In this document: positions 4,028 through 43,172 of the stretch, piece by piece
Numbering within the stretch: the first letter of the stretch is position 1
Layout of the letters: every line of letters starts with the position of its first letter
DNA from: a virus
Lineage: Duplodnaviria; Heunggongvirae; Uroviricota; Caudoviricetes
Direction: 5' to 3' (one strand)
IMG/VR virus record: IMGVR_UViG_2872185964_000005
DNA: 55,490 nucleotides
Notes under the pieces: generated by a model
Databases searched by the model: none
What the model saw: the letters and a program-made list of their open reading frames with translations, nothing else
Told to the model about the DNA's origin: nothing
Position numbers and translations under genes: made by a program

Positions 4028-4034
4028 ATCGTCC

Positions 4035-5704: not shown

Positions 5705-5755
5705 CTCAGCCTCCTGTGAAAAAAGACACGGGGGCATTTCGCCCCCGCTCACGGA

Positions 5756-6784: not shown

Positions 6785-6841
6785 AAATCAGTTCCTTTCA
6801 TTCAGAAATCAGTCAGGCCACCATGGTGGCCTGATAACGTG

Positions 6842-7189: not shown

Positions 7190-7248
7190 ATTGTTAAAAC
7201 CTCGTATTGATGTTCAGCACTGACTTCATGGCATGGCCATGAGCATTT

Positions 7249-12429: not shown

Positions 12430-12526
12430 AATCCGGTAATTTATCCCCTGCCCGCGCACACTGATTTGCCCCTTCGCAATAAGGGTTTTCAGATGGTCAA
12501 GATGGCGTGGTGTTAAATCAGGAAAC
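12430..12526 (-). pseudogene. Nu1: Terminase small subunit Nu1, C-terminal fragment, separated from its N-terminal part by IS insertion and inversion
   Basis: Translation FPDLTPRHLDHLKTLIAKGQ continues the Nu1 sequence that stops at 18569 (..LSMQRQFP); shared 8-bp GTTTCCTG duplication. Confidence 0.7.
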
Positions 12527-12656
12527 GTAAGGCAGTATGACTTTCCGTGAGACAGATGCTGGCCAACGTGGGATATTTAACGCGGGTTAACATCGTTGTC
12601 AGAGCCGCATGGGTGAGCTGTTGCTACACCCCGGTATTTCCACCACGGAGGCCAGC

Positions 12657-25073: not shown

Positions 25074-25587
25074 CAACAGCTCACCCATGCGGCTCTGACA
25101 ACGATGTTAACCCGCGTTAAATATCCCACGTTGGCCAGCATCTGTCTCACGGAAAGTCATACTGCCTTACTATCGTATTGATTGATCTGCATCAAATTAA
25201 CGTAAAAGCAACTTCAGATAATACAAATCAGCAACACTGAATATGGGGAAACATTATGTCATCAAAGAACAGAACCCGCAGAACAACAACCCGCAACATC
25301 CGATTTCCAAACCAGATGATTGAACAAATTAACATCGCTTTTGATCTGAAAGGTTCAGGAAACTTTTCAGCGTGGGTTATTGAAGCCTGCAGGAGAAGGC
25401 TGGCAACAGATGCAACGCATCTGCGCCCGGCCAGCATGACAAATAACGAGAAATGAACGTTCGGTTACAGGAGCAGGTACCCACTGTCCTCCAACAATAT
25501 TTCATCTTCATATCCGACGGAACAAGACTTACCCTGCCGGGATGTACAGAATAACAACAGAGTGATAATTAATTTCTGATGAAATAA

Positions 25588-25914
25588 TCAGGGTGCGGAA
25601 GGACTAAAGATAAACGTTTTCTTCACGCCTTTACACGGCCTGTCCTTCTCAAATCGCCATTTTGCCATCGCCTTTACAACCTGCTCATCAAACAGATGGT
25701 GCGGCTCTGAACGAATAAACTCAATTCGGGTGACAGTACCATCAGCACCAATATCAAACCTCACATCAACCCGTCCCTTTATATAATTTGCCGCTGCATA
25801 GGCCGGATATTGTGGTAATGCCTTAACCAACTGTCGGGGCATATCTGTTTTATGTTGCGTACAGCCCATAACCAGAGAAGACAACAAAATAATTAACGGA
25901 AGGTTTCTTTTCAT
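25588..25914 (-). CDS. Predicted lipoprotein with a TonB C-terminal-like domain (moron)
   Basis: Signal peptide plus lipobox MKRNLPLIILLSSLVMGC; YP.Y...G.V.V.F.I.ADG.V..I..I.S.P...FD..V..A...W.F pattern typical of TonB_C; GGGA Shine-Dalgarno. Confidence 0.6.
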   Translation of the reverse strand: MKRNLPLIILLSSLVMGCTQHKTDMPRQLVKALPQYPAYAAANYIKGRVDVRFDIGADGTVTRIEFIRSEPHHLFDEQVVKAMAKWRFEKDRPCKGVKKTFIFSPSAP

Positions 25915-26258
25915 TTTCATTCCCGGCACAGATAAGAATAAGTCTTATTCTAACAATGCCACCCTGTCGGTCATCAATCCTCTGCTTAATGGCAACGACA
26001 ATTATCCGACTTAAATCACAAATCAGACACATGACATAACAGAGCTTGCGAGGTAACACATCGTCCGGTTTCTTCCACCATCGCACCGGACCAGCGACCA
26101 TGAGGGGACAACGCCGCGCTCCGTTAACGCGGTAAACCCCGGTGTGTATCGTTTTTGATTATCCCCGCACACTCGCGCAGAGGAGTCTCCCGGTCGGGCT
26201 GCGGTCTCTGTTAATGCGGGGATACGGCGACAATACCGCGCATGGTTAATAAGGTCGC

Positions 26259-26483
26259 TCAACACACTGGCTGTAATGCAGCGGATACCATGCGGCATTT
26301 AGCGGCATTCATCGTACACTCAACGGTTAGCTCTTCATTCGTGGCATTCACCTGAAAGGTCCGGGAGTGTAATTGCGTACATTTACCACTGAACGAACCT
26401 TCAACAAGAACACGACCACGCTGCAAAATACGGAACGGAATTGTTCCCTGAAAAGGCTTTACGGTTACCAGTAATTTCTTCAT
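26259..26483 (-). CDS. Hypothetical 74-aa Cys-rich protein
   Basis: ORF with GGAGA Shine-Dalgarno 5 nt before ATG (MKKLLVTVKPFQGTIPFRIL...); no recognisable family. Confidence 0.4.
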   Translation of the reverse strand: MKKLLVTVKPFQGTIPFRILQRGRVLVEGSFSGKCTQLHSRTFQVNATNEELTVECTMNAAKCRMVSAALQPVC

Positions 26484-26509
26484 GCATTCTCCGGATAACA
26501 AAAATACTA

Positions 26510-26979
26510 GTTAATACACTGAGTGCGGATATATTCCTGCGCCCCTTCCAGTTGCTTCTGCATTGTCATCAACCGCTCTCTGAGGGTGAAATAATCCCGT
26601 TCAGCGGTGTCTGCCAGTCGGGGCCGGTTGCATTATCCATTCCGGAGGTGCCGGTGGCTTCACGCACGGTACCGGAGCAGGTGGCGTTGATCCGCAGGCG
26701 CTTACGACCAGCGGCAACATCAGCACGCAGAGTTTCATTTTCAGCTCTCGCATCGGCTAATTCCCTTGAGTATCTGGCATCAAGCGCAGCAACATCACGC
26801 TGGCGCTGCTGCATGTCAGTAATGGTTGCGTTTGCCAGCTCCAGCTCTCTGGCTTTTTTATCGCGCTGCGCTTTGTAGGTGATGGCGTTATCACGGTAAT
26901 GGTCTGTTGCCAGCCACAGCGCACCACAGACCACCAGCAGAATAACGGTAAACGCGGAAAGCATTCGGTTTATGTTCAC
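26510..26979 (-). CDS. Rz: Spanin Rz (i-spanin) with embedded Rz1 (o-spanin); apparent C-run frameshift near 26620
   Basis: N-terminus ..[42 protein letters not shown] matches lambda Rz; the alternate frame gives Rz1-like [15 protein letters not shown]; downstream frame gives [17 protein letters not shown]. Confidence 0.8.
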
Positions 26980-27107
26980 CCCAGCAGCCCCGACGAAGAC
27001 AACATCATCCAGGCCATGGAAAGAAAAAGAGCAACCAGCATTAGTGAAAATGAAATGCCGACAATTACACAGAGGATCTTCGCCAGCGTTATGAGTTTGT
27101 CTGACAT
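26976..27107 (-). CDS. Small single-pass membrane protein (43 aa), uncharacterised
   Basis: GGGAGGA Shine-Dalgarno; [43 protein letters not shown]; between endolysin and Rz. Confidence 0.45.
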
Positions 27108-27121
27108 GCTTAATCCTCCCT

Positions 27122-27304
27122 TCACGATTTCAACGCAATGACCAGTTTTGCCAGCCCATACAGCATCGGGGACACAGCAACACCGACCGCCATCCACTTA
27201 ATGGCAAAAGCCAGTGCTCTGCTGATGTCATCAGTTACAGGCGCTTTCAGTTCAAGGCCGTTTTTCATGGTCAACCTCAACAGAATTCGTTTATACTTCG
27301 CCAT
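27122..27304 (-). CDS. Small C-terminally anchored membrane protein (60 aa), uncharacterised
   Basis: AAGGGAG Shine-Dalgarno; [60 protein letters not shown]. Confidence 0.45.
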
Positions 27305-27337
27305 GTTCTCCCTTGCCTTACTCAAGGTCAGAAACAC

Positions 27338-27372
27338 AAAACCCCGCTTGGTGCCAACAAACGGGGTTTTTA
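27338..27372 (-). terminator. Hairpin with flanking A/U runs between the endolysin gene and the small membrane-protein genes
   Basis: aaaaccccg-15 nt loop-cggggtttt; the T-run is stronger on the plus strand. Confidence 0.4.
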
Positions 27373-27460
27373 CTTTTATTCACTTACGTTTCGCCAGTTC
27401 GCAGGATTTCGTGTTATCCGTCCGCGTGCTCATGCCTTATTTTTCAGCAAAATATTCTGC

Positions 27461-27994
27461 TTATCTGTCGATGTCCCAGCACGCCAGCGCACTTTCCTGG
27501 TCTCGCCGGGATACCTGACCGTAGCAATTATTTGAGCGGATACGGCAGTCTCTGCCACCGTCCTTAATCCACCAGCGAATCGCTTCGCATGCTCCCCTGC
27601 GGTCACCAGCATTAATCCGTCTGTAAAACGTCGACGGGAAACACTTACCGGGGCCAATGTTATAGGGACAAAATGACGCGATACCCGCTTTCTGGGGTTC
27701 GGTCAGCGGCACTTTAATATTGCGCTCCACCCATGCCAGCGCCTTATCACGCTCAATGGCGTTGACCTGGTCGCATTTTTCCTTCGACAACTTCATGCCC
27801 GGGACGACAGGTTTACTATCCACCAGGATGGCACCGCGGCAGATGGTCCAGATACCCGCGCCATCACGGTATGCCGTGGTGTGGTTACCTTCCTTTTCAT
27901 CCAGAAACTGGTCGAGGATTTCAGGCGCAGGCGCACCTGCGGCAATCAGCGCCAGAACGGCAGCCGACAGGCCGTATTTGATTTTGGTGTTCAT
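27461..27994 (-). CDS. R: SAR (signal-anchor-release) endolysin, lysozyme family
   Basis: N-terminal hydrophobic SAR segment LSAAVLALIAAGAPAP; ..YRDGAGIWTICRG.. catalytic region resembling P1 Lyz / phage 21 R. Confidence 0.8.
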   Translation of the reverse strand: MNTKIKYGLSAAVLALIAAGAPAPEILDQFLDEKEGNHTTAYRDGAGIWTICRGAILVDSKPVVPGMKLSKEKCDQVNAIERDKALAWVERNIKVPLTEPQKAGIASFCPYNIGPGKCFPSTFYRRINAGDRRGACEAIRWWIKDGGRDCRIRSNNCYGQVSRRDQESALACWDIDR

Positions 27995-28044
27995 GGATAT
28001 TTATCAGGGTTTATCGATTTCAAATCCCTGGATATGTTAAGTCT

Positions 28045-28389
28045 TCAGGCCAGCGGTGGAGTCTTCAGAGAACCCGTAATTATTCCCGGTAGTTTTCCTC
28101 TGTAGGTTATCAACACATCCTGCGCCTCTAAAATTACGGGGCGCTTTTCCGGCAACGGACCATCCCCTTCACATAACCCGGCAGCAACATCCATGAAAAA
28201 CTGCTTCGCCTGCTTTTTCGCCTCAGCTTCGTAAAACTCCAGCGTGGCATATTCAGTACGGTCAAGACTAATCGCCACATCTGGCAACAACAGTGACGGA
28301 TACCCACCAATTTCCAGTGCCACAGTAACAGTAATCTTATTCGGGTAATTATTTATCCCTTTAACAACCAGTTCGTATTTTTTCTTCAT
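28045..28389 (-). CDS. Hypothetical protein between holin and endolysin
   Basis: 114-aa ORF, no transmembrane segment; gene order resembles holin-ydfR-lysozyme in some E. coli cryptic prophages. Confidence 0.4.
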   Translation of the reverse strand: MKKKYELVVKGINNYPNKITVTVALEIGGYPSLLLPDVAISLDRTEYATLEFYEAEAKKQAKQFFMDVAAGLCEGDGPLPEKRPVILEAQDVLITYRGKLPGIITGSLKTPPLA

Positions 28390-28393
28390 CGCT

Positions 28394-28609
28394 TTACTCT
28401 CCCCGCGCCGCCTTACGACGGTCCTCTCTGATTTTGAAATACAGGTTAGTCAGATATGTCAGCAGCCCAAACAACAGACTCCCCAGCACGCCTATTGCCG
28501 CCCACTGAGACGGGGAAACCCTGTCCAGCAACTGCAGGAACCAGTAGCCCGTTCCCACCGCTGACGTGGTGTATGACACACCTGTTGTGATTTTTTCCAT
28601 CTGGTACAT
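28394..28609 (-). CDS. S: Pinholin, phage 21 S21 type, with dual-start motif
   Basis: ..[51 protein letters not shown] is near-identical to the S21 C-terminal sequence; two Met codons three codons apart (MYQMEK). Confidence 0.8.
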
Positions 28610-28684
28610 ACCCGTCTCCCGCAATCCGGAAGCTCACAACAATATAAAGACCACCGGCACACACCGATGGTCCCTTGCGCATGC

Positions 28685-28930
28685 TTACATCATCATGTCG
28701 CTGTCAGGTGTAGGTTCACCGCCATCTGAAGCACTCCCGTCACCCGCGATACCTTCCGGCTCAGGAACCGCTGCTACGCCCAGCAGCTCATCCAGAATGG
28801 CATCCACTTCTGCATCAAGACGCGACTCAAGATTCTGGCGAAGTTTCTGTTTCAGTGCGCTCCGGACTTCTTCAGAGCGCAGGACTTCCTTCACTGCCTC
28901 TGCAGTGACCAGGGATGTGATTTCTGACAT
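28685..28930 (-). CDS. Hypothetical acidic protein (81 aa)
   Basis: ORF from MSEITSLVTAEAVKEVLRSEEVRSALKQ...; late-operon position upstream of the holin. Confidence 0.4.
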   Translation of the reverse strand: MSEITSLVTAEAVKEVLRSEEVRSALKQKLRQNLESRLDAEVDAILDELLGVAAVPEPEGIAGDGSASDGGEPTPDSDMMM

Positions 28931-28955
28931 GGGATTTTCTCGCTGAAAGGGGTTG

Positions 28956-29138
28956 TTAAGGAGTAACGGGTTCTTCGGGTTTGCTTCCGGCTGACTGACT
29001 GGCGCTGATTTTCTCAGCGGCCCTTTTATCAATCTGCCTGCACCAGAAATCGCGCACAGCCCTGTACCCACCCGAAAGAAGATACAGCACACAGACCGCC
29101 GTACAGAAGTACAGCATCACCTGATGAATAAATGTCAT
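28956..29138 (-). CDS. Hypothetical small membrane protein (60 aa)
   Basis: MTFIHQVMLYFCTAVCVLYLLSGGYRAV... single hydrophobic helix. Confidence 0.4.
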   Translation of the reverse strand: MTFIHQVMLYFCTAVCVLYLLSGGYRAVRDFWCRQIDKRAAEKISASQSAGSKPEEPVTP

Positions 29139-29276
29139 AATTTCTTACCGTTATGGTTGACAATGAGAATTGTTTTCATTTAAAAACCAATGTACGAAAG
29201 CATCTTTTCTTTACATTCTCCATTGGGATTACCTCCGCCAGCTTCCATTCCTGCCGCTGGCGGCTTTTTTTAGCAA

Positions 29277-31154
29277 TTATGCGGCTGCTCCAGCTTTGTT
29301 TGCTTTAACTTCCACCGTATCAATAAGTACAGGGTAGGTTTCTGCACTACCTGTAATATCCGTAATGACAAACCTGTTGAGTCCATTAGCAGTATTGGCC
29401 CATTTCACCAGGTCAAACGCCTGTCCATCCACACCATCAAGCACCGGAGTAACATTAATGCTGTTACTGCCCTTAAATTTAAATGCAAGCGTATGCCAGT
29501 CATGGTCGAATGCGCCAAACGTGCCAAGTTCTTTTTGTTGATTAACTGTATGATGGTATGCAACATTAATACTGGCTTTATCTGTCTGGACAAAGAAAGA
29601 ACTCAGATGGCCTTCACCACCCTCACCCGGCCATTCCGCTATTCGCCAGTACAAACCAAAGGCATACTTGTTTCTGGTTGTCTCAAGATTGACGTTTTCG
29701 GGGATTTTAAACCGGACAGCAATTTCCCCGCCTTTTTCCAGTAAAAGTTTTGCCTTGTCTGCAGCAATATCACAGTACATTGACCAGGATTTCGCGCTGT
29801 TATTTTTCTCAATTCGCAGAGCTTTATTGCCGCTGTCATCAACCAGTGTGCGTCTGCCATACATACCGTCCCAGCCATAAGGTTTCAGCTGATTGTCTGT
29901 AGCTTTTTTGGCATCGTAAAAAATTACAGACTCTGAGGTGGTAACCGGCCTGTCTGGAACAACCACCCCGGCAGTACCATTAACAAACGCAGAAGACTTA
30001 CCCGCGCAGCTCAGAATCGCCGTTGCCAGACGGTCGGAAATAATCCCACGGCGAGCCCATGAACTGAAATGGCTCGCCCTGTCCTGTGACGTCCAGGTGG
30101 CTGAGCTGTCACGCCATTTCGAACCGTAATAACCGATACCCGGAATGTCCGGGTCTTCTTCCGGTTTGTTCGTCGGCACATTCACCCCGTTCTCATCGGT
30201 CATGAACGGTACGAAATGGATATTCTTTTCCGTTTTATTTTTATAGCTGCCGTACACCGTCTGGTACGTGGATTCGTTCTTCTGCTTCCAGAAATACGTC
30301 GTGTCCCCGCATATCCAGGGAACACCACCAGCAGAGCCACCGACGCACTGGCCTGCCATATCCGCCAGGTCTGCACGGAATTTATCAACCAGCGCACCAA
30401 ACTGTGCGGCATGATTTGCCGGCGTACCGCCAAAATCAAATTCCCCCTGCATCCACACCACGGCAAACAGCACATTTTTCGGGTTCTTCTCCAGTGCCGC
30501 TTTTGTTCGACCGATAAGGTCCTTATACAGCGGCTTGTCCACACCCCAGCGGGTTGAATTCTCCGAGGCACCACTCGCGTCACTGTATGTGCCATCAGCT
30601 CCGGTGGTGAACGCTGAACCACCACGACAGCACGGAACCAGCAGAATGCCCGCATTCGCCGGTATAAACGGCAGCAGTTTTTTGGCGATATGCAGCCCCT
30701 GCCCACGGTTCCGTACTGCCCTTTGACAGGTCCGCTTTCGGATGGTTAAGACGGCTCATGTCCTGCACATCATGCAGACAATGGTCCGCCGGAATGATGT
30801 CGTTATATTTGCATGCTGCACCGCCCGGTGTCACCGTACTGCGACGCGCCAGTTGCTTAATACGCGGGTCCGGACGGTCATATGTCCCGGCAGCGGAAGG
30901 CCTTCACCATACGACATGCCGTTTGACTGCCCTGCCAGAACCACAACAAAGTAATACTCCGGGTTGCTGGTGGCGCTGATTACTGCACCTTCTGCTGCAA
31001 TCGCCTGCATCAGAGTATAAGGGGTTATGGCCACCGGACTACCAAACGGCTGCCAGCCCTCTTTCAGTTTATGTGTCAGCTTTTCCGCAAGATCTGACGG
31101 CGACGCCGCCCTGACAACATCATAGTGTTTAAATGCCATGGTTCTTTCCACCAT
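29277..31154 (-). CDS. nanS: Prophage sialate O-acetylesterase NanS-p-like (SGNH hydrolase), reading frame broken at least twice (apparent frameshifts)
   Basis: N-terminus MAFKHYDVVRAASPSDLAEKL...YYFVVVLAGQSNGMSYGEGLPLP (SGNH GQSN motif); ORFs 30831-31154, 30595-30834, 29277-30542 colinear. Confidence 0.75.
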
Positions 31155-31399
31155 CTGAAAAATGATTCTTTAAAATACCTGACATGTAATACAGAAAAAA
31201 CACAAAACCATACCTTAAATAAAAACCTCATCATCAAGCAGATATGCATGGATAAACTACAAGACGAGATATAAACCACCCTGCATTTAAATAAACAATA
31301 AACAACATCAGAAAAATAATTCTGCTCTATGGTTTACATTCAAAAATATCATTTATACTTTTCAGAACATCACCAGCAATGCATAAACAAGGAAACCAA

Positions 31400-31735
31400 A
31401 TGAAGTGGATTGTGATTGATACAGTTATCCAGCCATCATGCGGAATATCTTTTTCAGTCATATGGAGTAAAATAAAATTAATAATCTGGTATCAATCGGA
31501 TGCTTTCTTACCTCCTGAAAGTATATTTACACTGACTCACACAGGCATCATGCTCAATAACAAAGTGCTACCTGTAACCATTTACAACGTAGTACCATTC
31601 AATAAAACATTCTGGAATTTAATCAAAAACAGCCAGGAATGCCCTACAAATACAGATAACGTATTGAATGAATGCTTTAATAACCGTTGCACTCTGCAAA
31701 TATGTCCTTATGGGCTAAAACAACAAAGTCCATAA
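31400..31735 (+). CDS. Hypothetical Cys-rich protein encoded in an AT-rich island, antisense to the phage late operon
   Basis: [25 protein letters not shown]... preceded by a very AT-rich 220-bp region; no signal peptide; no family recognised. Confidence 0.35.
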
Positions 31736-32013
31736 GGAGTTTACTCACATCTGACAAAATCAATATAAACAGCCCTCCGGAGAGGGCTGGAGAGTGGCGC
31801 TATGTGCCATTGCATGGTGCCGGGTGCCTCCCGGTGAATTCAGTACCAGCACCTGAATCCGCGATTATCCCATATACCTACTCGCTGATTGCCCCTCCGC
31901 ACAGGGGATTCACCATGCCAGTTTCTTTTAACAAACTCCCCGCAAACCAGACAACAGTCAACCGCCTGAATTGTGAGACATTTAAAAAAAAGCCCGCAAA
32001 AGCGAGCCAGGGA

Positions 32014-32090
32014 AAATAAGTGTGGCGCGTTCTACTGTATTCGAACCAGTGACCGATTGCTTAGAAGGCAATTGCTCTGTCCGGCTGAGC
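32014..32090 (-). tRNA. tRNA-Arg (anticodon UCU), one acceptor-stem and one T-stem mismatch
   Basis: Cloverleaf readable by eye: D-arm TAGCTCAGCCGGACAGAGCA, anticodon loop CUUCUAA, T-loop TTCGAAT, 3' GCCA. Confidence 0.6.
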
Positions 32091-32099
32091 TAACAACGC

Positions 32100-32189
32100 A
32101 GGATACAGATAATGAACCGCCTTCGGGACCCGAACTCCGCGCAACCAGCTTCGAAGGCTGGCGCTCTTTCCTGATGAGCTAATGGCGGT
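32100..32189 (-). other. tRNA-like sequence (possible degenerate tRNA-Arg, anticodon UCG); T-arm does not fold cleanly
   Basis: D-arm TAGCTCATCAGGAAAGAGC and anticodon arm CCAGC-CUUCGAA-GCUGG are intact, T-stem pairing is poor. Confidence 0.3.
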
Positions 32190-32262
32190 ATGTGATAGTG
32201 GCCCTTGCTGGATTTGAACCAGCGACCTGGCGATTATGAGTCGCTCGCTCTCACCACTGAGC
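32190..32262 (-). tRNA. tRNA with CAU anticodon (Ile2/lysidine type or Met), prophage ileZ-like
   Basis: GGCCCTTTAGCTCAGTGGTGAGAGCGAGCGACTCATAATCGCCAGGTCGCTGGTTCAAATCCAGCAAGGGCCA folds as a canonical cloverleaf. Confidence 0.75.
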
Positions 32263-32320
32263 TAAAGGGCCGGGAGCAGAATAATAATGGTGCGTAATTA
32301 ATTCTGCAATCTCATCCGTT

Positions 32321-33368
32321 TCAAACGATTAAATCCTGAACTTCCCTGACTGTCTGCTCAAAACGTCCTGTCTCCAGTTCAACGCCAATCGCACGACGCC
32401 CGAGCGCCAGTGCCGCTTTTACCGTTGAACCCGACCCCATGAAAAAATCCGCAACCAGATCACCAGGACGACTACTTGCGCTGATTATCTGCTGCAGCAT
32501 TTCTGCCGGTTTTTCGCACGGATGTTTCCCGGGATAGAACTGCACCGGTTTATGTGTCCACACATCCGTGTACGGCACCTGCGCCGTCACACCAAAATAC
32601 CGCCGCAGATGTTTATATTCACTCTGCAGCTCCGCATACTGTCGGTTCAGTGAAGTATACGTATCCACCAGCTGGTGGTGGGGCTTTTCCAGTTCCCCCG
32701 CTGATGCTTCTCTTCTGCCACCCTGGCAAACAGTGCCTGTAATTTCAGATAATCGCTTTCGTTCGGCAACTGCCACTGACTGGCACTGAACCAGTGCGAC
32801 ACCATGTTTTTCTTTCCTGTGGCATCTGCAATCTGTTTTGCCGTTATCCCCAGGGCCGCGCATGCATCACGAAAGTAAGAAATCAGCGGGCCATCACATG
32901 CTGTTTCAGTGCCCTGCCCTTCGCCTCATACCCGGCATCTTTCGGACGATACGGCCCCTGATAATGTTCCGCGAACAGAATGCGCTCTGTGGCGGGGAAA
33001 TACGCCCGCAGGCTTTCCTTGTTGCACCCGTTCCAGCGTCCGGAAGGCTTCGCCCAGATAATATGGTTCAGCACACTGAAGCGTTCACGCATCATGATTT
33101 CGATATCAGATGCCAGGCGATGACCACAGAACAGGTAAAGACTTCCGGCAGGTTTCAGCACCCGCCAGAACTGCGCCAGACACTGGTCCAGCCACTTCAG
33201 GTAATCATCGTCGCCCTTCCACTGGTTATCCCAGCCCTCAGGCTTCACTTTAAAGTACGGCGGGTCCGTGACTATCAGGTCAACAGAATTTTCGGGTAAC
33301 GACCGGATAAATTCCAGGCAGTCGGCGTTGATTAACTCACAACTGGATATTTTTACAGTATTAAGCAT
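32321..33368 (-). CDS. Orphan DNA methyltransferase (N6-adenine/N4-cytosine class, motif IV before motif I); apparent frameshift near 32870
   Basis: DLIVTDPPYF (motif IV) in ORF 32883-33368 and FFMGSGSTVKAAL (motif I) in ORF 32321-32863; no adjacent restriction endonuclease gene. Confidence 0.75.
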
Positions 33369-33518
33369 GGATCATTAAGCCTGTCTCTGATAGGCTCATT
33401 CTGCTTTTGCGCAAAGCAGTGGGCCTGAGGTTTGCTTGTGAACCCAACGCATGAGCAGATGGCTGGTGGGTGCCCCTAACACCCACCAGCCGCCCATTTA
33501 CCACAAATAAAAAAGCCT

Positions 33519-33716
33519 TCACTGCGGAAGGCGTCTGTAACAACCGAACTGATAGTCTGCCAGACCCGCCATAACCAGCTGGGTCAGTATTAACTGGCAG
33601 CGTTCGCGTGAAAGGTAAGTATTCTGCGCTATCTCCCCGACTGTCGCCGGTTCGGTAACGCTTAATTCATTAAACACCACTCTGGCGGTTTCTGTCATAT
33701 CCTGCTGTTTTAGCAT
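33519..33716 (-). CDS. Hypothetical small protein (65 aa), possible winged-helix
   Basis: MLKQQDMTETARVVFNELSVTEPATVGEIAQNTYLSRERCQLILTQLVMAGL..; lies between tR' and the methyltransferase gene; followed by a hairpin plus T-run at 33506-33535. Confidence 0.35.
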   Translation of the reverse strand: MLKQQDMTETARVVFNELSVTEPATVGEIAQNTYLSRERCQLILTQLVMAGLADYQFGCYRRLPQ

Positions 33717-33840
33717 GTCTTTTTCCCTTTTCCGGTTAACGTGACACACCAATAACTCTTGTCGAAAAAGCCAGCAAGCTGAAAGACAGGTATTCACCGC
33801 CACCAGCGCGTTTACTGTACTGACGCGATTTCAGTCATAA

Positions 33841-33872
33841 AAAACCCGCCAGGCGGCGGGTGTAAAAAATCT
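33841..33872 (-). terminator. tR'-like intrinsic terminator downstream of the Q gene
   Basis: Minus-strand cccgcc-gccu-ggcggg followed by uuuuuuau, about 70-100 nt after the Q stop. Confidence 0.6.
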
Positions 33873-33894
33873 TCTAACGTCAGGCATAAAACGC

Positions 33895-33925
33895 CCATCA
33901 TTAGAGCAAATTTACCACAGATTCG
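33895..33925 (-). promoter_or_regulatory. Candidate pR' late promoter
   Basis: Minus-strand TTGATT - 16 nt - TAAATT between the Q stop and the terminator. Confidence 0.4.
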
Positions 33926-33941
33926 GGAAAAATCAACAACA

Positions 33942-34762
33942 CTATCGCGTTACCCTCTTTAACTGCCGCTCCGCCCATGCCTCTTCAATGTCAAACCGAA
34001 CCACCAACGTATCGTAAAAGCGTTTCACTGATTTTTTCCACGTATCAAGCGTGATAGCACTCGTCACTTTGCATATGGCATTAAATGCCTCCGTTGATGG
34101 TAGTCTTTCACAGCCACGACCACCACAACGCTGGCAGTCTCTGATAACAGGCATACCACGTTTTACCGACTCTTCACGATGAATGGCGACACCACGCCCA
34201 CGGCAATCCTTACAGGCGGTGGAAACCTCACCCTTTCCGCCACACTCCGGACAGGCAACTTTTACCACCTCCCTGACTTTTTTCCATTCTTCCAGTAAGA
34301 CGGATACACGCCTTTTGTGCACTTTGCCCACACTGGTGGCTTACCATCCGGATACTGGATCTTGTTTGTAAAAACCTCGCTTTCAATAAATTTTTTTCCG
34401 TGACAGCAGGGGCACTGTTTTTTGCTCGCCGCGCTACGGGCATAATCTTCAAACGCATACGAAGCCATAATGCGCATCACTACCGGTTTTATTTCTGCCG
34501 GAAGTTTTCTCAACGCCGCCACACGATCGCACCGACTGAGTGCATAATCTGCCAGTAATTCTGTTGCCCGCGCCCTGTCATTCATACTGATGCCCATTTT
34601 CCCCAGGAACGCAGAAAACCCCATCTCAGCCCGATTCTGTGTCATGCCCTGCGCGGCCATCACATCAGTGATACTCAGCGCATCTTTTGACGTTGAGGCC
34701 GATGCATCGGTCAGGCTAGGGGATTTTGGGGAGTAGTATTTCGGTAAATCTTCCAGTTTCAT
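33942..34762 (-). CDS. Q: Late antiterminator Q (phage 82/21-type zinc-finger Q), apparent frameshift near 34300
   Basis: N-terminal ORF (..LADYALSRCDRVAALRKL..YAFEDYARSAASKKQCPCCHGKK) and C-terminal ORF (CPECGGKGE..CKDCRGRG..CQRCGGRG) overlap in different frames. Confidence 0.75.
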
Positions 34763-34798
34763 TTTTTGACCTGCTCTTCATGCATTATGGGTAAATCT

Positions 34799-35131
34799 TC
34801 ACCCCATACGTCCACCAGATACTGGCTGACCACGAACGATATTGATTTCATCAAACTGCTCATCGTCCATTAACACTCCCGCATGCGTCAGCGCATCCAG
34901 CGGTGCTTTCAGGATATTGTCCAGGTCGCGACGACGCTTATCCGGTGGCTCTGCAATCACCTTTATCGCCAGCCTTCCGGACAGGCTTAATTTCAGCCGC
35001 TGCTGGCGAACAATAAGCGCCACAGCCCGGCGATAACGCTTTCCCTCCTCCGAGATAAAATATGTGCTGCCACGGCGTCGCCAGTAAGTGTTCACCGTCG
35101 GCGGGTAAGGTAAAACCAAATCTATGAGCAT
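34799..35131 (-). CDS. rusA: Holliday junction resolvase RusA
   Basis: 110-aa ORF with ..PPDKRRRDLDNILKAPLDALTHAGVLMDDEQ matching the RusA catalytic core. Confidence 0.8.
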   Translation of the reverse strand: MLIDLVLPYPPTVNTYWRRRGSTYFISEEGKRYRRAVALIVRQQRLKLSLSGRLAIKVIAEPPDKRRRDLDNILKAPLDALTHAGVLMDDEQFDEINIVRGQPVSGGRMG

Positions 35132-35325
35132 CAGTCACCTCTTTTACCCAAGCACGCCAGTTGCAAAGGCGTGATCAAGAAAACGAAAAATTAAATCAAC
35201 CTGAGAACCATGCTTTTCTTCGAACGCCAGAGGATCCGCATGAAGCTCGTTGTGATGCTCCCGACACAGCGGTAGCGTGAAAATATCGTGAGATTTTGTC
35301 CCCATTCAGCCCTGACCATGACCAA

Positions 35326-36048
35326 TCAGGTGATGGGATCGTCGGCTGGCTTACCACAACACGCACACGGCTGTGTCTTCACCCAGCGTGTGTATTTCTC
35401 GTTAACCCAGCGGCGACGTTTTGGGCGTAACATAAAAGACTCCGGCGACTCCGGATCCACTTTCAGCGCCAGCACCTTTTTCGCCTTATCCTGGATGATG
35501 CTGGTGGCAGGAACCGAAGGCACAAGGTCACTTTCCCGGGTGACAGACGGCACAACAGGCTTCGGTAATCTCAGTGCCTTACGGGCTGCACTTTCCGGTA
35601 AGGCATCCGCCAGGTCATTACGAATCAGCCACCAGCACAGTTCCGGCATTGTCACAACGTGACTGTCATCAAAACCGAGATCCCGACGCACAACAGACAA
35701 CACCCAGCGGGCACAGTTATCCGTTGCCATTGATTCCAGCCGTTCCGTGAACTGGTCACGGAGAAGATTGTCACAGTGCCAGCACAGACGGATTGCGCCT
35801 GGCGCGTGCCGCATTGTGGTCATGTTCTCGCTGTGCCAGTCGGAATGAGGCCACTGACAGCCCTTTTCACGAAGTAACCAGCTCTCAAGGCATTCCACGC
35901 CACCAGCACGACGGATCACCGCCTCATGGCGGAACACGGCCCGAACGGCAGGATCATCCGCCAGCGGTTGTGATGCTGCCGGAACGGCACCGCTGGCGAA
36001 AGATGAATAACGTTCCGGCTCAGGCTCCAGCAGGACACGCCCCTGCAT
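35326..36048 (-). CDS. Hypothetical nin-region protein with CxxC motifs (possibly DUF968/YdfU-like)
   Basis: 240-aa ORF with CWHCDNL and CACCGK motifs; 190-bp gap to rusA suggests a truncated or frameshifted 3' end. Confidence 0.4.
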   Translation of the reverse strand: MQGRVLLEPEPERYSSFASGAVPAASQPLADDPAVRAVFRHEAVIRRAGGVECLESWLLREKGCQWPHSDWHSENMTTMRHAPGAIRLCWHCDNLLRDQFTERLESMATDNCARWVLSVVRRDLGFDDSHVVTMPELCWWLIRNDLADALPESAARKALRLPKPVVPSVTRESDLVPSVPATSIIQDKAKKVLALKVDPESPESFMLRPKRRRWVNEKYTRWVKTQPCACCGKPADDPIT

Positions 36049-36182
36049 AAACAGGGCATCAGCTCTGAACCGGGCCTGAACAATACAATCCCCATTCGCG
36101 GGGCAATTTCAGGAGTCAACAATGCTCTCACGGTCACCTCAGCGAACGATATTGCATGAACGCAGGAGAAAAAATTCAGCCA

Positions 36183-36440
36183 TCACGCAGTAAACTCCTT
36201 CACCAGCGTTTCAAACTGGCTTACCTGGCCTTCCAGTTCCGCCACGCAATCCACCAGCTCATCCACCGCCTTTTGTGTACGGTGTTTTGCCTGCAGCAGA
36301 TCACGAAGCGCCGGAGTAAGCTGCTTGCGGAGCGTATCTTTTGCCACGCTCGTTTTTTCCATCTGTTCAGCACAACGAAGCATCTCCTGCGCCTGCCGAC
36401 GAAGTTGTTCCGGTGAAACAGTGATTGTTCTGTTGTTCAA
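36183..36440 (-). CDS. Hypothetical coiled-coil protein (85 aa)
   Basis: ORF between the helicase and nin-region genes. Confidence 0.35.
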   Translation of the reverse strand: MNNRTITVSPEQLRRQAQEMLRCAEQMEKTSVAKDTLRKQLTPALRDLLQAKHRTQKAVDELVDCVAELEGQVSQFETLVKEFTA

Positions 36441-36504
36441 AATAAACGCTCCGTTTTACTGCCCGACATGCGGTTATTGCTGTATCTGCGCGGATTGCCC
36501 GGCG

Positions 36505-37835
36505 TCATGGGTGTGGAAAGAACCGGGCACTCTCCTGGTCCACAGGCAGAAAATGTCCGTTATGAAAACGCCGGTAAATGGTCCCGAGCGTGCCATTACG
36601 CTGTTTCGTGATGTTGATTTCTGCTATGCCTCTGGCCTGAGTTTCCGGGTTGTATACCTCATCCCTGTAAAGCATCAGAATGATGTCGGCATCCGCCTCG
36701 ATTTCCCCGGAGTTTTTCAGGTCCGAGTTCATTGGGCGTTTATTGGGTCTGGATTCCACGCCGCGGGAGAGCTGGCTCAGAGCAATCAGCGGAAAACCGC
36801 CGGATTTTGCCAGGCTTTTAAGTCCCTTTGAGATTTCCCCCACCGCAAGGTCGTGACGCCCCGTACTGCGGGTTTTAATCAGGCCGAGGTAATCGACCAC
36901 CACCAGCGCCGTTTCCGGGTGTTTCATCCGGTGGTGCTTCGTGGTTGCACATATCTCATCAATGGGTCAGGTTTGCCTGGTCCACCATCCAGATATTACG
37001 CCCCGTCATTCGTCCCACGCCCTGCGAGAAACGCGCCCAGTCTTCATCTTCAAAACGGGCAACAGACTTAAGACGGGATACCGGCATTCCACCGGCAGCA
37101 GACACCATACGTTCACCAATCTGGATGTTCGCCATCTCCATGGTGAACAGAAGCACGCCATGCCCCTGCTCAGTCACCTTGTCGATGATGTCCAGCGCAA
37201 GTTCGGTTTTCCCCATCGAAGGACGGGCGGCAATGAATACCAGGTCTCCGGGCTCCATACCGCCCGTTTTTGCGTCCAGTTCATCAATACCGGTCATCAG
37301 CGCCCTGGATTTCTCCAGTCCCTGATTGCGGCATTCAACACGGTCGACCACTTCCAGAAGGACATCATCAATGTGAACCGGCTGAATGACGCCCTTTCCG
37401 GTCGACAGTGAGGCCATCATGTTCTGCACATCCTTCAGGGCATCCTCGGCTGCTTCACAGGTATACGCATCACGTAAATTCTGTAATGCTTCAGTCAGTG
37501 TTTTTTCTGCATCGCGCAGTGCGGCATTGCGCCGCAACGCTGCGACATAGTGCTCCAGTGAAGACTTCACCCAGGTTTTGCGTCCGGTGTCGGTAATCAC
37601 CGGGCAAGTTCCGGCATCTCATTGCACAGCAGTACGGGGTCAATGACGCCGGATATGCGAGCCTGTCTGCAAATCCCGCGTAAATATCCCGGTACTGACG
37701 CACAAAAAATACATCCGCCGGAAGTGTGGCCAGAATATCCATCACTTCCGGATCGGCCCCACGCAGAAAAAACGCACCGATGACAGCGCCTTCCAGGTCA
37801 TCGTTACGCCATGCCGGGGTGTTCTGGCTGGTCAT
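36505..37835 (-). CDS. Replicative DNA helicase, DnaB family; two apparent frameshifts
   Basis: DnaB N-domain ORF 37491-37835; Walker [13 protein letters not shown] in ORF 36959-37600; C-terminal ORF 36505-36927. Confidence 0.8.
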
Positions 37836-38719
37836 GCGGCAACACCTCCGATACGAGAACGGTAGCTGGGCCAGTTAAACGACAACCAGTTGCGCCCGCC
37901 ATCGGTGATCCTGTCGGCAATCCGGGGACTGATGAACGCCCACAATTCTTCCGGTGAAAGATTGCTGATCAAGATAGTTGGCAAAATACCCTCATACCGG
38001 GCATTGATAATTTCCTGCAAAATGGCCATTTCAGCCGCACTGCCAAACTGAACGCCGACTTCGTCGACAATCAGCAAATCCAGTGACGCATAATGCTCAA
38101 TGACGTCATCCGCTGTTTTTTCACTGTCATTCCGCCAGCAGTTTTTCACAGCCCGGGTAAGGCGCATCACGTCGGTGATCTCCACACTGGCCAGATAGTT
38201 ACGGATGATGTGTTTTGCCATTGATACCGCCAGATGATTTTTCCCGGTACCGCAACTGCCGGTCATAACAAGACTGGTACCGTTCTCCAGCATATCTGGC
38301 CAGTTCTCCGCATAGCGGCGACAGGCCGCAAGATTTCTGGCTGCGTCAGGATTAACCTCCAGATAATTATCAAACTCGCAGTCCCGAAAACGCAGAGCAA
38401 TTCCGGCGTTATCAGTCAGTTCTTCCGCCTTGAGGGACGACAGTTCCATGGTCAAATAACTGGCCTCAGCGATCAAGCAGTCAGGGCAGCATGAAATTTT
38501 TTCTCTGTCCTCGCCATTACGATCGCTCCACACCAGTATATGCGTACGATATTTACCGTGTTTTTCGCAATATCCGCGACCTTCACGCATCAGGCAGGAA
38601 CGATAAGGCCATGGCTTTTCGCCCTTCTGAGCAAATGCAATCTCTGCCCGTAACTCATCCATTCGCGCCTGTAGTCTTGTTTGTTTCTCACGTTGGTCAA
38701 TCGTCATCATCGCTGTCAC
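37832..38719 (-). CDS. DnaC-like helicase loader (IstB-like AAA+ ATPase)
   Basis: Walker A GSCGTGKNHLA, LLIVDEVG, C-terminal WLSFNWPSYRSR resembling DnaC. Confidence 0.75.
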   Translation of the reverse strand: MTAMMTIDQREKQTRLQARMDELRAEIAFAQKGEKPWPYRSCLMREGRGYCEKHGKYRTHILVWSDRNGEDREKISCCPDCLIAEASYLTMELSSLKAEELTDNAGIALRFRDCEFDNYLEVNPDAARNLAACRRYAENWPDMLENGTSLVMTGSCGTGKNHLAVSMAKHIIRNYLASVEITDVMRLTRAVKNCWRNDSEKTADDVIEHYASLDLLIVDEVGVQFGSAAEMAILQEIINARYEGILPTILISNLSPEELWAFISPRIADRITDGGRNWLSFNWPSYRSRIGGVAA

Positions 38720-38720
38720 C

Positions 38721-40007
38721 TCAGAATGTCAATTTGTTACTGGATTTACCGAATTTGTCAGACATGGCTCCCAGGCCAGCCAGGACATCAACCTGTCGCT
38801 GTCGCCCACCTCCGTGAGCGGCTGGCTGTTGCCAGTAATCTTCGAAGTGACGATCGGGTCCAAAGAACGTCGCAGCCTGCTTCACGAACTGTGTGCCGGT
38901 ATTTCCTGTAGCACGTACCCAGGCGGCATACCGCTTCACGCCATCAAGCATGGTCTCCGGTTTTATTCCTTCCCTGATACGGGCTTTCCAGGCTTTGAAG
39001 GCTGCTGACTTGGAATTGCCACCAGCACGTTTGGGATATTCCTGCCAGGCCTGTTCAAATTCCGGTGAATATTCCTGTCGGGCAGAACGCGCTGGCGCAG
39101 ACGCGTCAGCGGATGCATCAATAGTGTTTTTAGTCTCCGTTGTAATCTCTGTAGTAATCTCTGTATTTGTATCAACATTCGGCGTATCCCCTGTTCCGTT
39201 ATGACGTCGGGGGTGTTCCGTTTTAACGTAATAGCTGTATCGCTGATTGCATTATTGCTGTTACTTTCTGGCGAAACAGAAGAAGGTGTGGTGATGGCCG
39301 CAATTGCCTGTGGGTTGATCCCGACAAACAAAATATTGCTGCATTTCACCCCATCGAGCATTTCCACCGTGCGTAAATCCAGAGTAATAAACCCTGCATC
39401 GCGCAGACGCTTCAGCGCATCTGCGGTTTCCCTTTTCCCGAAACCAAACTGCTCAGCAAACGCCTGGTAGCTTCTTTGCAGTTTGTCGCCCTGAAAACGC
39501 TTGCGATATCCCAGCAACGCTCCGGTGTGCTCATCCCTGACCTCTGTCGGCGGTACCAGTAAACGATCTCTGAAAGCAGAGCGATAGCCGTCGCATCCGG
39601 ACGCCCACTGGGTAGTCGAATATATTTCCACCAGTTCGCAGGTGTAACATTGCCGGAAATATTAATTTGACCAATAGCCATAACTTCCGGTGTGGGGGCG
39701 TAACGGCTCATACAACCTCCTTCCGCGGCATGAGAATTGTGTAGCCACGCGCAGGTTGTAGTCTGGCTTTTGCATCAATAGTAAGCGTTGCAATTTTTCG
39801 GATATGAAGATAACCAGCTCTTTCCAGTGCCAGGGTTTCCCTGAATATCGCTTGCTTAGAACAACAGCAGAAATCAGCAAGCACCTGATGATCAATAACT
39901 CTCTCGCCTTCACCGTCTGAAGAACCCGACATCAAAACACGCAACATAATCAGGCGCTGAATCGGGTTATCGAAAGCACATCCGCACACAAACTGAAAAC
40001 AGTTCAC
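38721..40007 (-). CDS. Replication initiator, lambda O-like (N-terminal DNA-binding domain, iteron-containing linker, C-terminal domain); two apparent frameshifts
   Basis: Three colinear ORFs (39708-40007, 39412-39711/38963-39631, 38721-38951); direct repeats inside the gene; position upstream of the loader and helicase. Confidence 0.6.
39141..39165 (-). repeat. Candidate origin iterons inside the O-like gene
   Basis: Tandem GTAATCTCTGTA x2 with flanking partial copies (tagtctccgt, tttgtatcaaca). Confidence 0.45.
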
Positions 40008-40223
40008 GCCACACCTCCCAGACGCTTAAACATTTTTCCAGACAGAAATACCGCCAGAGGGTAACTGATGGTGTAGCTACGCCCCTGTAGTTCGCACACG
40101 ACTTTCTGGCTTTCAGCGTTGACTAGGCAAACCCGCAGAACGTGACCGTTGCTGGTGGCGAACCACTGCCCCACACGGGGCAACGGTTGTATCGGTGATA
40201 CAGGGAATTAACGATGTGGCGGA

Positions 40224-40418
40224 TCATGGACGCACCTCCACCGTAGTTACGTATTTAACCGGGCTACCTTTCATTGAGATGGTTTCACACATCTCTGCCG
40301 CTTTCAGTTCCGCTGTTTTTCTGGATTTATAGCGACGGTGCCAGACAGATACATCCGTGCGAACTGATACATCGTTTCTGTATTCCGTAGTGGAGATGAT
40401 GATTTCGTAACTAATCAT
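40224..40418 (-). CDS. Hypothetical protein (64 aa)
   Basis: ORF overlapping the stop of the Rha gene by 4 bp. Confidence 0.35.
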   Translation of the reverse strand: MISYEIIISTTEYRNDVSVRTDVSVWHRRYKSRKTAELKAAEMCETISMKGSPVKYVTTVEVRP

Positions 40419-40962
40419 GGGCGAACCTCCTTGTCAGAACCATTCAGCCTGGAATCAACAAGTGCAGCGCCAAAAACAGCATCACCAACACGGTCGTACA
40501 GTTTGCTAGCCAGCGGAGATTCAACGGCCTTAAGCATTGGATAAAGCTGGCTTGTCCAGATTTGATGGATTTCACGCAAATGCAGGTATACGCCTCTGGC
40601 GTTTCGTGCGACAGCTGACATATCAACCGCGTCAGCACCAGATAAATTCTTCTCCATCTGGTTAAAGGCGTTGATGTATGCCTCTTTGAACCGGGCTGCA
40701 CGTTTGCCAGTAAAGCCCATAGCAAGGAACGCGAAGCCATCGCGGGTGATTTGATAGCAAGGTAGTTTGCGGCCTGTGCAATCGGTGTAATCACTGGGCT
40801 GAAAATTCAGCTCAGTGAATTCAACAGAGCACTCAAGCGTCTGGATTTTTTGAATAACGTTTTTGTGCTGCTTGCAGAAATATTCGGCAACGGCCAAAGA
40901 AGAGGTAACAGCCTTCCCATGGATAACATCAATTTTAGGGTGAGTTTGGGTAGGGGTGGTTG
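40415..40962 (-). CDS. rha: Rha-family phage regulatory protein
   Basis: From MATTPTQTHPKIDVIHGKAVTSSLAVAEYF...FTGKRAARFKEAYINAFNQMEK; the upstream in-frame extension crosses a terminator hairpin and is excluded. Confidence 0.7.
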
Positions 40963-41127
40963 CCATAGTGACATCCTCATGTGCGAATTTTGAAAACTCA
41001 CCACATGGGACGCCAATCACAGAGGTGGTGAGACGTACAGGGTTGGCGTAACCGGTCGCACATGACCCCGGCGCATCTTTCGATGCCCCTGCACGCCCCA
41101 CCATAATTTGGATGTGAGGAAACGTGC

Positions 41128-41152
41128 GCAAAAAAACCGCTGAAGCGCGGTT
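41128..41152 (-). terminator. Intrinsic terminator between the two Rha-family genes (tR1-like position)
   Basis: Minus-strand aaccgcgc-uucagc-ggutt stem followed by uuuuuuu. Confidence 0.5.
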
Positions 41153-41371
41153 ATGCGCATGTGCGAATTTCAGGACGCCAATCCCGGCACCCGCTTTATA
41201 AGGTGCGGAGACAGTGTAACGTCCCGAAATTGCAGAATCAATATTTGGTCTTGAAATGATCATATAGCTGCTGATATCTTTAGAACTGTTCTTGGATGTT
41301 TCGGAGCCGTTTTATGCGAAACAGCTCCCCGTTATTGATGTTGAGTGAGCCGGGTTACTCCCGGCTTTTTT

Positions 41372-42079
41372 TCACCGCTGCCAACCAATAACCTGAAATA
41401 ACCCCATTTTCGGGTGATACCAGCGAGTCCCTCGCGGTTCTGCTTCCTCCATAACCCGATAAAAAGCAGCCATAAACGGTTCCACAGCAACAATTGCGCG
41501 ACGTGACAACAATCTGTCCGGCGTCATGAACTCATGGGTGTCTGTAGGAATTTGATAGGCGTTCACCAGATTGCGGCATTTATCATCTGACAAACCGGTT
41601 TTTGCTTTCAGTTGGCGATATCCGGCATAGCCCTCACGAATAGTGCCCTTTTTAATTTGCTCGACTGTTTCAGCAACGTGGCTGACTTTTTCTTCCACCT
41701 GAGTGATCCGTTTCTGTTGGCGAACGGCTTCAAGAGCCATCGCGGCAACCATTTCGATTTCGCTCATTGGCTTACGGATCTGTTCTTCCAGTTCGCGCCA
41801 GCGATCTACCAGGCGAGCTGTGAATTCAGGACAGAGCTGTGCGACGACAATGATGCTGTCGCGCTTACCTCGTTCACCTTCGAATACATACGCGCTAGAA
41901 AATCGGCGAGGCCCAAGTGATTGTTTATTCTCAATTTCCACAGTCTGTGGAAATTGGATGATTCCCTTTTTAGCCAGTGTTTCAATAGTTCTCTTAACAC
42001 TATCTGGTCGGCTTCCCACCAGCTCTGCGATCTCAACGCTGGTCATGGATGCTTTGCCGTTAAAAATTGCGGTGTTCAT
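41372..42079 (-). CDS. Phage regulatory protein, Rha/antirepressor-like N-terminal domain
   Basis: MTSVEIAELVGSRPDSVKRTIETLAKKGII... ; translationally coupled (ATGA) to the upstream cro-like ORF. Confidence 0.55.
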   Translation of the reverse strand: MNTAIFNGKASMTSVEIAELVGSRPDSVKRTIETLAKKGIIQFPQTVEIENKQSLGPRRFSSAYVFEGERGKRDSIIVVAQLCPEFTARLVDRWRELEEQIRKPMSEIEMVAAMALEAVRQQKRITQVEEKVSHVAETVEQIKKGTIREGYAGYRQLKAKTGLSDDKCRNLVNAYQIPTDTHEFMTPDRLLSRRAIVAVEPFMAAFYRVMEEAEPRGTRWYHPKMGLFQVIGWQR

Positions 42080-42303
42080 TGTTGGTCTCCTGTGGGCTTG
42101 TCATCTTCTGTATTCGCTAGCCTTGGGTGTGTATATGGAATGCTCGGATCCAGATGACAAAGAATGGCAACATCCTCCGGAACACCTCGCGTTTTCCACT
42201 TTCCAACACCTTGACTGCCACGAGGCCTTCCTTTCTTTGGGAACCTGCGACCAATAGCGGCATTGGTTTTAAATTGAATTTTTAATATTTCATAAAGGGT
42301 CAT
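42076..42303 (-). CDS. Cro-like first gene of the rightward early operon (assigned by position); contains an AT-hook-like GRPRG motif
   Basis: 75-aa ORF divergent from cI across a 111-bp region with repeated GTATCA-containing sites. Confidence 0.4.
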   Translation of the reverse strand: MTLYEILKIQFKTNAAIGRRFPKKGRPRGSQGVGKWKTRGVPEDVAILCHLDPSIPYTHPRLANTEDDKPTGDQQ

Positions 42304-42414
42304 TCTTTAGTCTCACACCAGATACTTTGTTATTCAACGATGTTAACCGCGGGATTCCAAAGTATCAAGAAATTCTGTTACTTTCGTATCAACAGCCATG
42401 AGAGGAGAAGAAAA
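42304..42414 (+). promoter_or_regulatory. Candidate OR/PRM-PR operator-promoter region
   Basis: Repeated 17-mers tACTTTgtTATtCAAC / tACTTTcgTATCAACa and aagtatcaag between the divergent cI and cro-like genes. Confidence 0.45.
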
Positions 42415-43070
42415 ATGAAGTCTTTAGGTGAACGTCTCATCAACGCACGGCAAAAAGCTGGGTTAACACAAGATGCGTTGGCTAAAAAAGCTGGGATCAC
42501 CAGAGTTGCAATCAGTAAAGCCGAGCAAGGCCTTACAAAAAGTTTCAACGGTGACACCCTTTTTAAAGTTGCAGCTGCACTGCGGTGTTCACCGCAGTGG
42601 CTTCAGAACGGAGATGAAAAAGATAAGCATTGGGAAAATAATGTTAAGAGCTGCCCACAGAGAGACACAGCACACTCTTACCCTGTAATTAACTGGGTTC
42701 AGGCAGGATTATTCGCAACTTCTGGTGATGACTACAACATGTATGATCAGGATAATTGGAGGCATTCTGTAAAATACGCTGGTGAGAGGGGTTCTGGCTG
42801 GAAGTGCACGGAGACTCAATGACTTCGCCCGTAGGAATAACATTTCCTGAAGGAATGTCGATCCTTGTCAACCCAGATAAAGAAGTTTTTTCAGGGTGTT
42901 ACGTCATCGCCAGAAAAAAATCCACCAATGAAGCAACATTCAAAAAATATATTTCTGACATGGGAAAGGCGTTTCTAAAGCCCCTTAATCCACAATATCC
43001 AATCATAGAAATGGACAATGATTGCGAAATAGTAGGTGTTGTGGTTGATGCCAGGTGGGATATTTTCTGA
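42415..43070 (+). CDS. cI: CI-like repressor (N-terminal HTH, C-terminal LexA/S24 autopeptidase domain), apparent frameshift near 42800
   Basis: MKSLGERLINARQKAGLTQDALAKKAGITRVAISKAEQG (HTH_XRE) and GDSMTSPVG...VIARKKSTNEATFKKY (S24 Ser/Lys) in adjacent overlapping frames. Confidence 0.75.
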
Positions 43071-43079
43071 CCAGACACA

Positions 43080-43172
43080 AAACACAAAAAGAAACCAAAG
43101 TATCAAAATCACTTGCCACACCTTGACACCTTAGTTACCATAAAACAAAGTTCGTAACTGAGGTATCATCTC
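43080..43172 (+). promoter_or_regulatory. Candidate OL/PL operator-promoter region
   Basis: aagtatcaaaat, ttgacacc, gaggtatcatct: the same GTATCA half-sites as the OR region. Confidence 0.4.

Follow-up and report, generated by a model that had tools for sequence, protein, structure and literature searches.

On the minus strand of the window, the whole 55,490-nucleotide stretch of prophage DNA analysed here, lies a methylase gene (32321-33368) that is assigned from its open reading frames, Pfam matches and intact homologues to the M.EcoGI/M.EcoGII family of beta-class N6-adenine DNA methyltransferases. By reading of the open frames, the gene begins with an ATG at 33368 and ends with a stop codon at 32323-32321, and the locus occupies 1048 nt, as against 1050 nt in intact copies, which encode 349 amino acids. 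The coding sequence is divided between two open reading frames: an N-terminal one of 161 aa (33368-32883), which matches the N-terminal half of the PF01555 (N6_N4_Mtase) model (E=1.5e-17), and a C-terminal one of 180 aa in another frame (32863-32321), which matches its C-terminal half (E=1.1e-24). Each half exceeds the PF01555 cutoff of 26.7 bits separately, and the repaired 349-aa protein matches the whole model with 151 bits (E=6e-44).

The catalytic motif IV, DPPY (residues 35-38, D35-Y38; 33255-33266, minus strand), and the AdoMet-binding motif I, FMGSG (residues 310-314, F310-G314, of the repaired protein; 32429-32443, minus strand), were located in the sequence and its translation. DPPY comes first, followed by the target-recognition domain and then FMGSG, and this order, together with the profile match, bears out the sequence-only reading of the gene as a beta-class amino-methyltransferase. 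In an AlphaFold model of the family (PMC11551740), the catalytic domain is made up of residues 1-134 and 260-349, with a four-helix target-recognition domain (residues 135-259) between the two parts; by these published limits, approximately 125 residues separate the two catalytic-domain parts of the protein. Beta-class methyltransferases of solved structure (8urk/9c3u 'Methyltransferase', M.RsrI, CcrM and M.MboIIA) share the catalytic and AdoMet-binding Rossmann halves (E=1e-25 to 6e-15), with matches limited to residues of about 8-142 and 269-343. For the central target-recognition domain, no matching sequence was found among solved structures.

Three-frame translation and alignment to intact homologues reveal that the frame is broken twice, not once. 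At the first break (about 32888-32891, minus strand), a gene-strand run of four Cs is read as three at codons 160-161 in alignments to the loci L001, L002 and L016, and a stop at 32885-32883 comes after it. At the second (about 32696-32700, minus strand), the alignments show a gene-strand run of six Gs read as five at codons 224-226. The protein reads on through three frames, ...KQHVMA / PLISYFRDACAALGITAKQ...EEKHQRG / ELEKPHHQLV...FFMGSGST...DLIV, and both breaks fall inside the target-recognition domain as delimited by the published model (residues 135-259). The intact 1050-nt, 349-aa references for this comparison came from complete E. coli genomes, among them WP_000935525.1 (O55:H7 DEC5E) and WP_000935531.1 (O104:H4 2009EL-2071). 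Restoring the two bases yields a 349-aa protein identical, residue for residue, to ACD07257.1 / B2TZ43_SHIB3, a protein of Shigella boydii CDC 3083-94 that is present on 145 contigs. As deposited, the two motifs do not lie on one polypeptide in an uninterrupted frame, and the full-length enzyme cannot be made from the gene as written in the window.

The surroundings are those of a lambdoid prophage, with Q, RusA and DUF968 genes on one flank and tRNAs, a SASA esterase, holin and lysozyme on the other. The Q antiterminator gene (33942-34762, minus strand; PF03589, 273 aa in sister loci) is itself split in the window by a one-base homopolymer loss at about 34294. A candidate PR'-like promoter, TTGATT-16 nt-TGgTAAATT (33909-33936, minus strand), lies 6 nt past the Q stop and resembles a late promoter that has an extended -10 element; it was read by eye and, with 8/12 positions, falls below the scan threshold. 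The terminator scan found, downstream of it, a strong tR'-like intrinsic terminator (33836-33861, minus strand; hairpin 33861-33844) formed by ACCCGCC-GCCT-GGCGGGT followed by TTTTTTAT, and another intrinsic terminator a short way before the methylase (33505-33532, minus strand; hairpin 33532-33515). Between the two is a conserved 65-aa open reading frame (33606-33803, minus strand; phrog_331), which every sister locus likewise has between Q and the methylase. Three tRNA genes, with the anticodons CAT, TCG (Arg) and TCT (Arg), stand directly downstream of the methylase (32023-32271, minus strand) by tRNA calls and by comparison with sister loci, the CAT-anticodon tRNA being annotated as tRNA-Ile in RefSeq relatives. 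A further intrinsic terminator from the same scan closes the methylase-tRNA block (31981-32008, minus strand; hairpin 32008-31991). Three minus-strand terminators bracket the unit downstream of Q, and the order Q, 65-aa frame, methylase, tRNAs is kept in every sister locus compared.

The placement of the gene directly downstream of Q/tR' is therefore approximate: the gene does belong to the late region downstream of Q, but it is not immediately adjacent, as a gap of about 570 nt between the Q stop (33942) and the methylase start holds both terminators and the 65-aa frame. No partner endonuclease is found among the neighbours, as had been noted at the outset; these are Q, the 65-aa frame, the three tRNAs, a PmrD/IraM-like gene, the SASA esterase, holin and lysozyme. 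A scan of 31900-34100, which covers the whole unit, found no sigma-70 consensus promoter. The layout is compatible with the Q-dependent read-through that the sequence-only reading had proposed. The comparative pR' paper PMC6266700 makes no mention of the methylase.

Several features beyond the unit were recorded. The tRNA-Arg(TCG) gene (32114-32189, minus strand) measures 76 nt, compared with 77 nt in the S. boydii record CP001063.1, a base being lost in a G4 run at about 32128, and its Rfam score is 35.3 bits in the window versus 43.4 in CP001063.1. Between the tRNA terminator and the PmrD/IraM-like gene lies a full-length match to the gammaproteobacterial sRNA STnc100 of Rfam (31759-31947, minus strand; 118.4 bits, versus 126.9 in CP001063.1) that bears three homopolymer losses. 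Three such losses (30705, 30722 and 30889) divide the esterase, a DUF1737-SASA-DUF6645 protein of the nanS-p type (29277-31154, minus strand; 617-621 aa in sister loci), into pieces of 107 aa and 421 aa. At the other end of the window, the sequence at 54351-55466 corresponds to mlrA (yehV) together with the integrase/excisionase region beside it. The prophage is therefore located next to mlrA, as are related prophages in the E. coli genomes that match; its integrase region, at about 770 nt, falls short of the roughly 1190 nt found in the E. coli relatives.

M.EcoGII is a 349-aa beta-class enzyme from a prophage of E. coli O104:H4 C227-11, is identical to M.EcoGI at 333/349 positions, and has a close relative in phage 1720a-02 (PMC5778455). 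The repaired methylase is identical at 346/349 positions to the copy in O104:H4 2009EL-2071 and at approximately 331/349 (about 95%) to M.EcoGII, the text of which was machine-read with evident errors (PMC11551740 supplement). Since the O104:H4 2009EL-2071 copy itself scores about 330-333/349 against M.EcoGII, which fits the published count, this copy is probably M.EcoGI. On that footing, M.EcoGI is likewise 349 aa long and lies in the same context of Q, 65-aa frame, methylase and tRNA, and the window differs from it by three amino acids and by the two breaks of the frame. M.EcoGII shares the length, the layout of DPPY, central target-recognition domain and FxGxG, and the prophage location; it differs by about 16-18 substitutions, which fall mostly in the target-recognition domain and just beyond (residues 164-277).

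At the nucleotide level, the gene is 98.4% identical to its counterparts in O104:H4 genomes, where it occurs at two places per genome, and 94.5% identical to that of phage 1720a-02. Stx-converting phages (1720a-02, Stx2a/2c/2d phages and phiP27) carry the methylase between Q and stx, with 83-94.5% nucleotide identity over the whole gene. The window, unlike these phages, has no stx; the tRNAs are followed instead by the STnc100-like sRNA, the PmrD/IraM-like gene and the SASA esterase. Of the 5426 complete E. coli genomes compared, 1980, about a third, carry the methylase, in up to 6 copies each.

Adenines in any sequence context are substrates for M.EcoGII, whether they lie in double-stranded DNA, single-stranded DNA or RNA; the enzyme is silent in the lysogen, and its constitutive expression is deleterious (PMC5778455). 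The same study suggests that prophage induction turns its expression on and that it shields phage DNA from restriction (PMC5778455). M.EcoGI is reported, second-hand in PMC4659465, to be non-specific and to give no methylation signal in normal growth. With 95-99% identity to these enzymes, the allele in the window would be expected to methylate adenine in any context as well. The specificity, which had been left to be assigned, thus falls to a characterised any-context adenine family, and the suggestion that such a gene alters host methylation appears unlikely to hold in a lysogen, given that the O104:H4 copies are reported to be without signal in normal growth and that constitutive expression is harmful (PMC5778455, PMC4659465). 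The layout likewise agrees with the lack of expression of the O104:H4 copies in lysogens. It follows from the published record that the gene family is already known, as are its non-specificity, its location in prophages and the fact that lysogens do not express it; the anatomy of the methylase does not depart from the published picture, and its place is the usual one for the family.

The cause of the two frame breaks was examined by comparing the window, which derives from the 4.71-Mb chromosome record CP026872.1 (assembly GCA_002950295.1), with CP001063.1 (locus L016), an S. boydii record that carries the same prophage. The prophage encodes an intact methylase there, as it does in several further assemblies. 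Over 18.3 kb (25074-43367), the window shows 8 substitutions and 24 one-base deletions relative to CP001063.1, with no one-base insertions, and all 24 deletions are located in G/C runs. Over all 23.9 kb aligned, the counts are 13 substitutions, 31 one-base deletions and 0 one-base insertions, with 30/31 of the deletions in G/C runs. The losses increase with run length: 1.3% of G/C runs of three are shortened, 17.6% of those of four, 35.7% of those of five and 100% (2/2) of those of six, compared with a single one of the 752 A/T runs of three or more. Four sister assemblies of the same prophage have 0, 0, 1 and 2 such deletions. The structural genes (662-12526, 11.9 kb), compared with an E. coli prophage, contain 9 further G/C-run deletions.

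The losses strike Q, RusA, DUF968, DnaB and the SASA esterase, and also the tRNA-Arg, the sRNA and intergenic terminator stems. Repeated sequences within the window show the same pattern. A 2.7-kb repeat is present twice, with 1 substitution but 7 differences in homopolymer length between its copies, and the middle one of three IS3-family copies (23730-25080) has three G/C-run losses with no counterpart in the other two. Losses that involve deletions only, are limited to G/C runs and depend on run length are the signature of homopolymer under-calling in long-read consensus sequence rather than of evolution. Because the losses have these properties, are specific to this assembly and outnumber substitutions, it is concluded, from the pattern, that both frame breaks in the methylase are most likely assembly artefacts, at about 85-90% confidence. 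The window alone is not proof of this. A genuinely split frame, making the gene a pseudogene, had been named beforehand as an outcome that would count against the sequence-only reading; the split is indeed present in the sequence, as two breaks, and artefact, rather than true pseudogene, is the most likely explanation. What is added to the sequence-only reading is that the split frame, like many apparent pseudogenes in the window, is most likely an assembly error.

Across the window (1-55490), G/C homopolymer losses amount to approximately 1.3 per kb relative to CP001063.1, a rate for which comparison within the window is limited by the near absence of housekeeping DNA; example sites are 26624, 28614, 30705, 30722, 30889, 34294, 34806, 35338, 36525, 37605, 39214, 40181 and 42792. 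The 49-55 kb end is without homopolymer losses and was considered as counter-evidence, which was rejected: with 9 G/C runs of four and 2 of five, about 2 losses are expected there. The 2.7-kb repeat is an inverted duplication (12527-15362 and 21004-23766) that contains an IS110-family transposase, and the prophage has apparently been rearranged between the structural and lysis regions. The three 1.3-kb IS3-family copies (17200-18600, 23730-25080 and 43860-45260), with an orfA of about 108 aa and an orfB of 296 aa, interrupt the prophage.

Taken together, the methylase is best regarded as an ordinary copy of the lambdoid-prophage M.EcoGI/M.EcoGII family that lies under late-operon control and whose frame breaks are artefactual, a combined reading to which a probability of about 0.85 is given. 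A constitutive PR'-like promoter just past Q would be active in lysogeny, with one or two intrinsic terminators halting its transcripts, and the methylase would be silent in the lysogen because these terminators stop PR'-like transcription. Upon induction, Q-modified RNA polymerase would read through, so that the methylase and the three tRNAs are transcribed. The enzyme would then heavily methylate the replicating phage DNA, and in the next host this methylation may blunt restriction systems that are sensitive to adenine methylation. For the copy in the window, the promoter, the dependence on Q and the anti-restriction role are thus predicted features. The two breaks in the frame would be one-base G/C homopolymer under-calls, a fault that runs throughout assembly CP026872.1.

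The foremost alternative is that both one-base deletions are real and that the methylase is dead, a true pseudogene in a decaying, IS-ridden prophage of Shigella type, whose loss may even be favoured if a leaky non-specific adenine methylase is harmful. The deleterious effect of constitutive M.EcoGII (PMC5778455) speaks for such selection, and decay of the prophage in this lineage is genuine: IS elements interrupt the prophage, splits in DnaB and DUF968 are common to several sister assemblies, and the CP001063.1 locus is without gene calls over the DnaB and DUF968 stretches. Split methylase halves moreover form PHROG families of their own, and in the assembly GCA_002968185.1 the methylase is also broken twice, once at the same G6 run. 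Against this, like lesions occur at approximately 1.3 per kb in all genes, and in tRNA, sRNA, terminators and repeats; they are only ever deletions, are confined to G/C runs, vary in frequency with run length, and outnumber substitutions by 31 to 13. The sister assemblies are practically free of such lesions (0-2 deletions), and, two missing bases aside, the encoded protein is that of the reference without one amino-acid change. A true pseudogene is therefore considered unlikely.

The split copies in other assemblies deserve separate consideration. GCA_002968185.1 (locus L021, PTES01000001.1), from a different strain, has the same G6-to-G5 loss and a different G4-to-G3 loss in the methylase, at L021 positions 9905 and 10164. 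Over 20.5 kb, this assembly bears the same deletion-only signature as the window but at a lower rate, with 6 substitutions and 9 deletions, each of the latter in a G/C run. Four losses are common to the two assemblies and all are in G/C runs of 5-6, as would be expected if errors recur at the longest runs. Common ancestry of the shared G6 loss was considered and rejected, as the sequences differ by substitutions and by 12-bp and 18-bp indels, and as all four shared losses fall in the most error-prone G/C class (5-6). Repeated miscalling of the longest run could account for the shared loss, and so could a genuine hot-spot of slippage or selection for inactivating a toxic gene. In the same assembly, the flanking Q, RusA, SASA esterase, holin and lysozyme are intact. 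PHROGs contains separate families for the N-half and the C-half of the methylase, which implies that split copies are common in deposited phage records, whatever the cause. The orthologue in E. coli SF-088 (NZ_CP012635.1, L004 7769-8817) is annotated as frameshifted and measures 1049 nt, a T5 run of the window appearing there as T4; it is a further homopolymer-linked split of this gene in a deposited genome.

A bolder proposal is that the C4 run (codons 160-161) and the G6 run (codons 224-226) are slippage hot-spots at which lysogens recurrently, and perhaps reversibly, silence a toxic methylase. This would explain the recurrence of split copies in assemblies and in phage protein families; it is regarded as a long shot. 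Still less probable is a contingency switch, in which the G/C tracts are real slippage sites that impart phase variation or are bypassed by transcriptional or translational slippage. Phase-variable methyltransferases under homopolymer-tract control are known in other bacteria and offer a precedent, and two different assemblies have a shortened G6 run. However, known contingency tracts are much longer than 4-6 bases, bypass would have to occur at each of two independent shifts, and the same loss at every G/C run of six and at a third of those of five in the compared DNA, whatever their location, means that the methylase is not singled out. Finally, a site-specific orphan methylase that is expressed in the lysogen and plays a Dam- or CcrM-like regulatory role in the host is scarcely credible: the nearest solved relatives do include the site-specific beta-class enzymes M.RsrI, CcrM and M.MboIIA, but the protein is 95-99% identical to M.EcoGII and M.EcoGI, which are reported to be non-specific and signal-free in lysogens, and the gene stands behind terminators, the scan of 31900-34100 having revealed no separate consensus promoter for it.

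The biological weight of the locus is small, and its practical value is as a warning that this assembly under-calls G/C homopolymers at approximately 1.3 sites per kb. The apparent pseudogenes in the window (Q, RusA, DnaB, SASA esterase, portal, protease and methylase) should not be taken as biological decay without read-level support. Relative to CP001063.1, the window also has in-frame repeat insertions of 18 bp (28871) and 12 bp (39154), which appear to be true polymorphisms and not errors. GCA_002968185.1 lacks them, whereas CP026762.1 (L012) has insertions of the same 18-bp and 12-bp lengths versus CP001063.1, a correspondence of length and not of aligned site.
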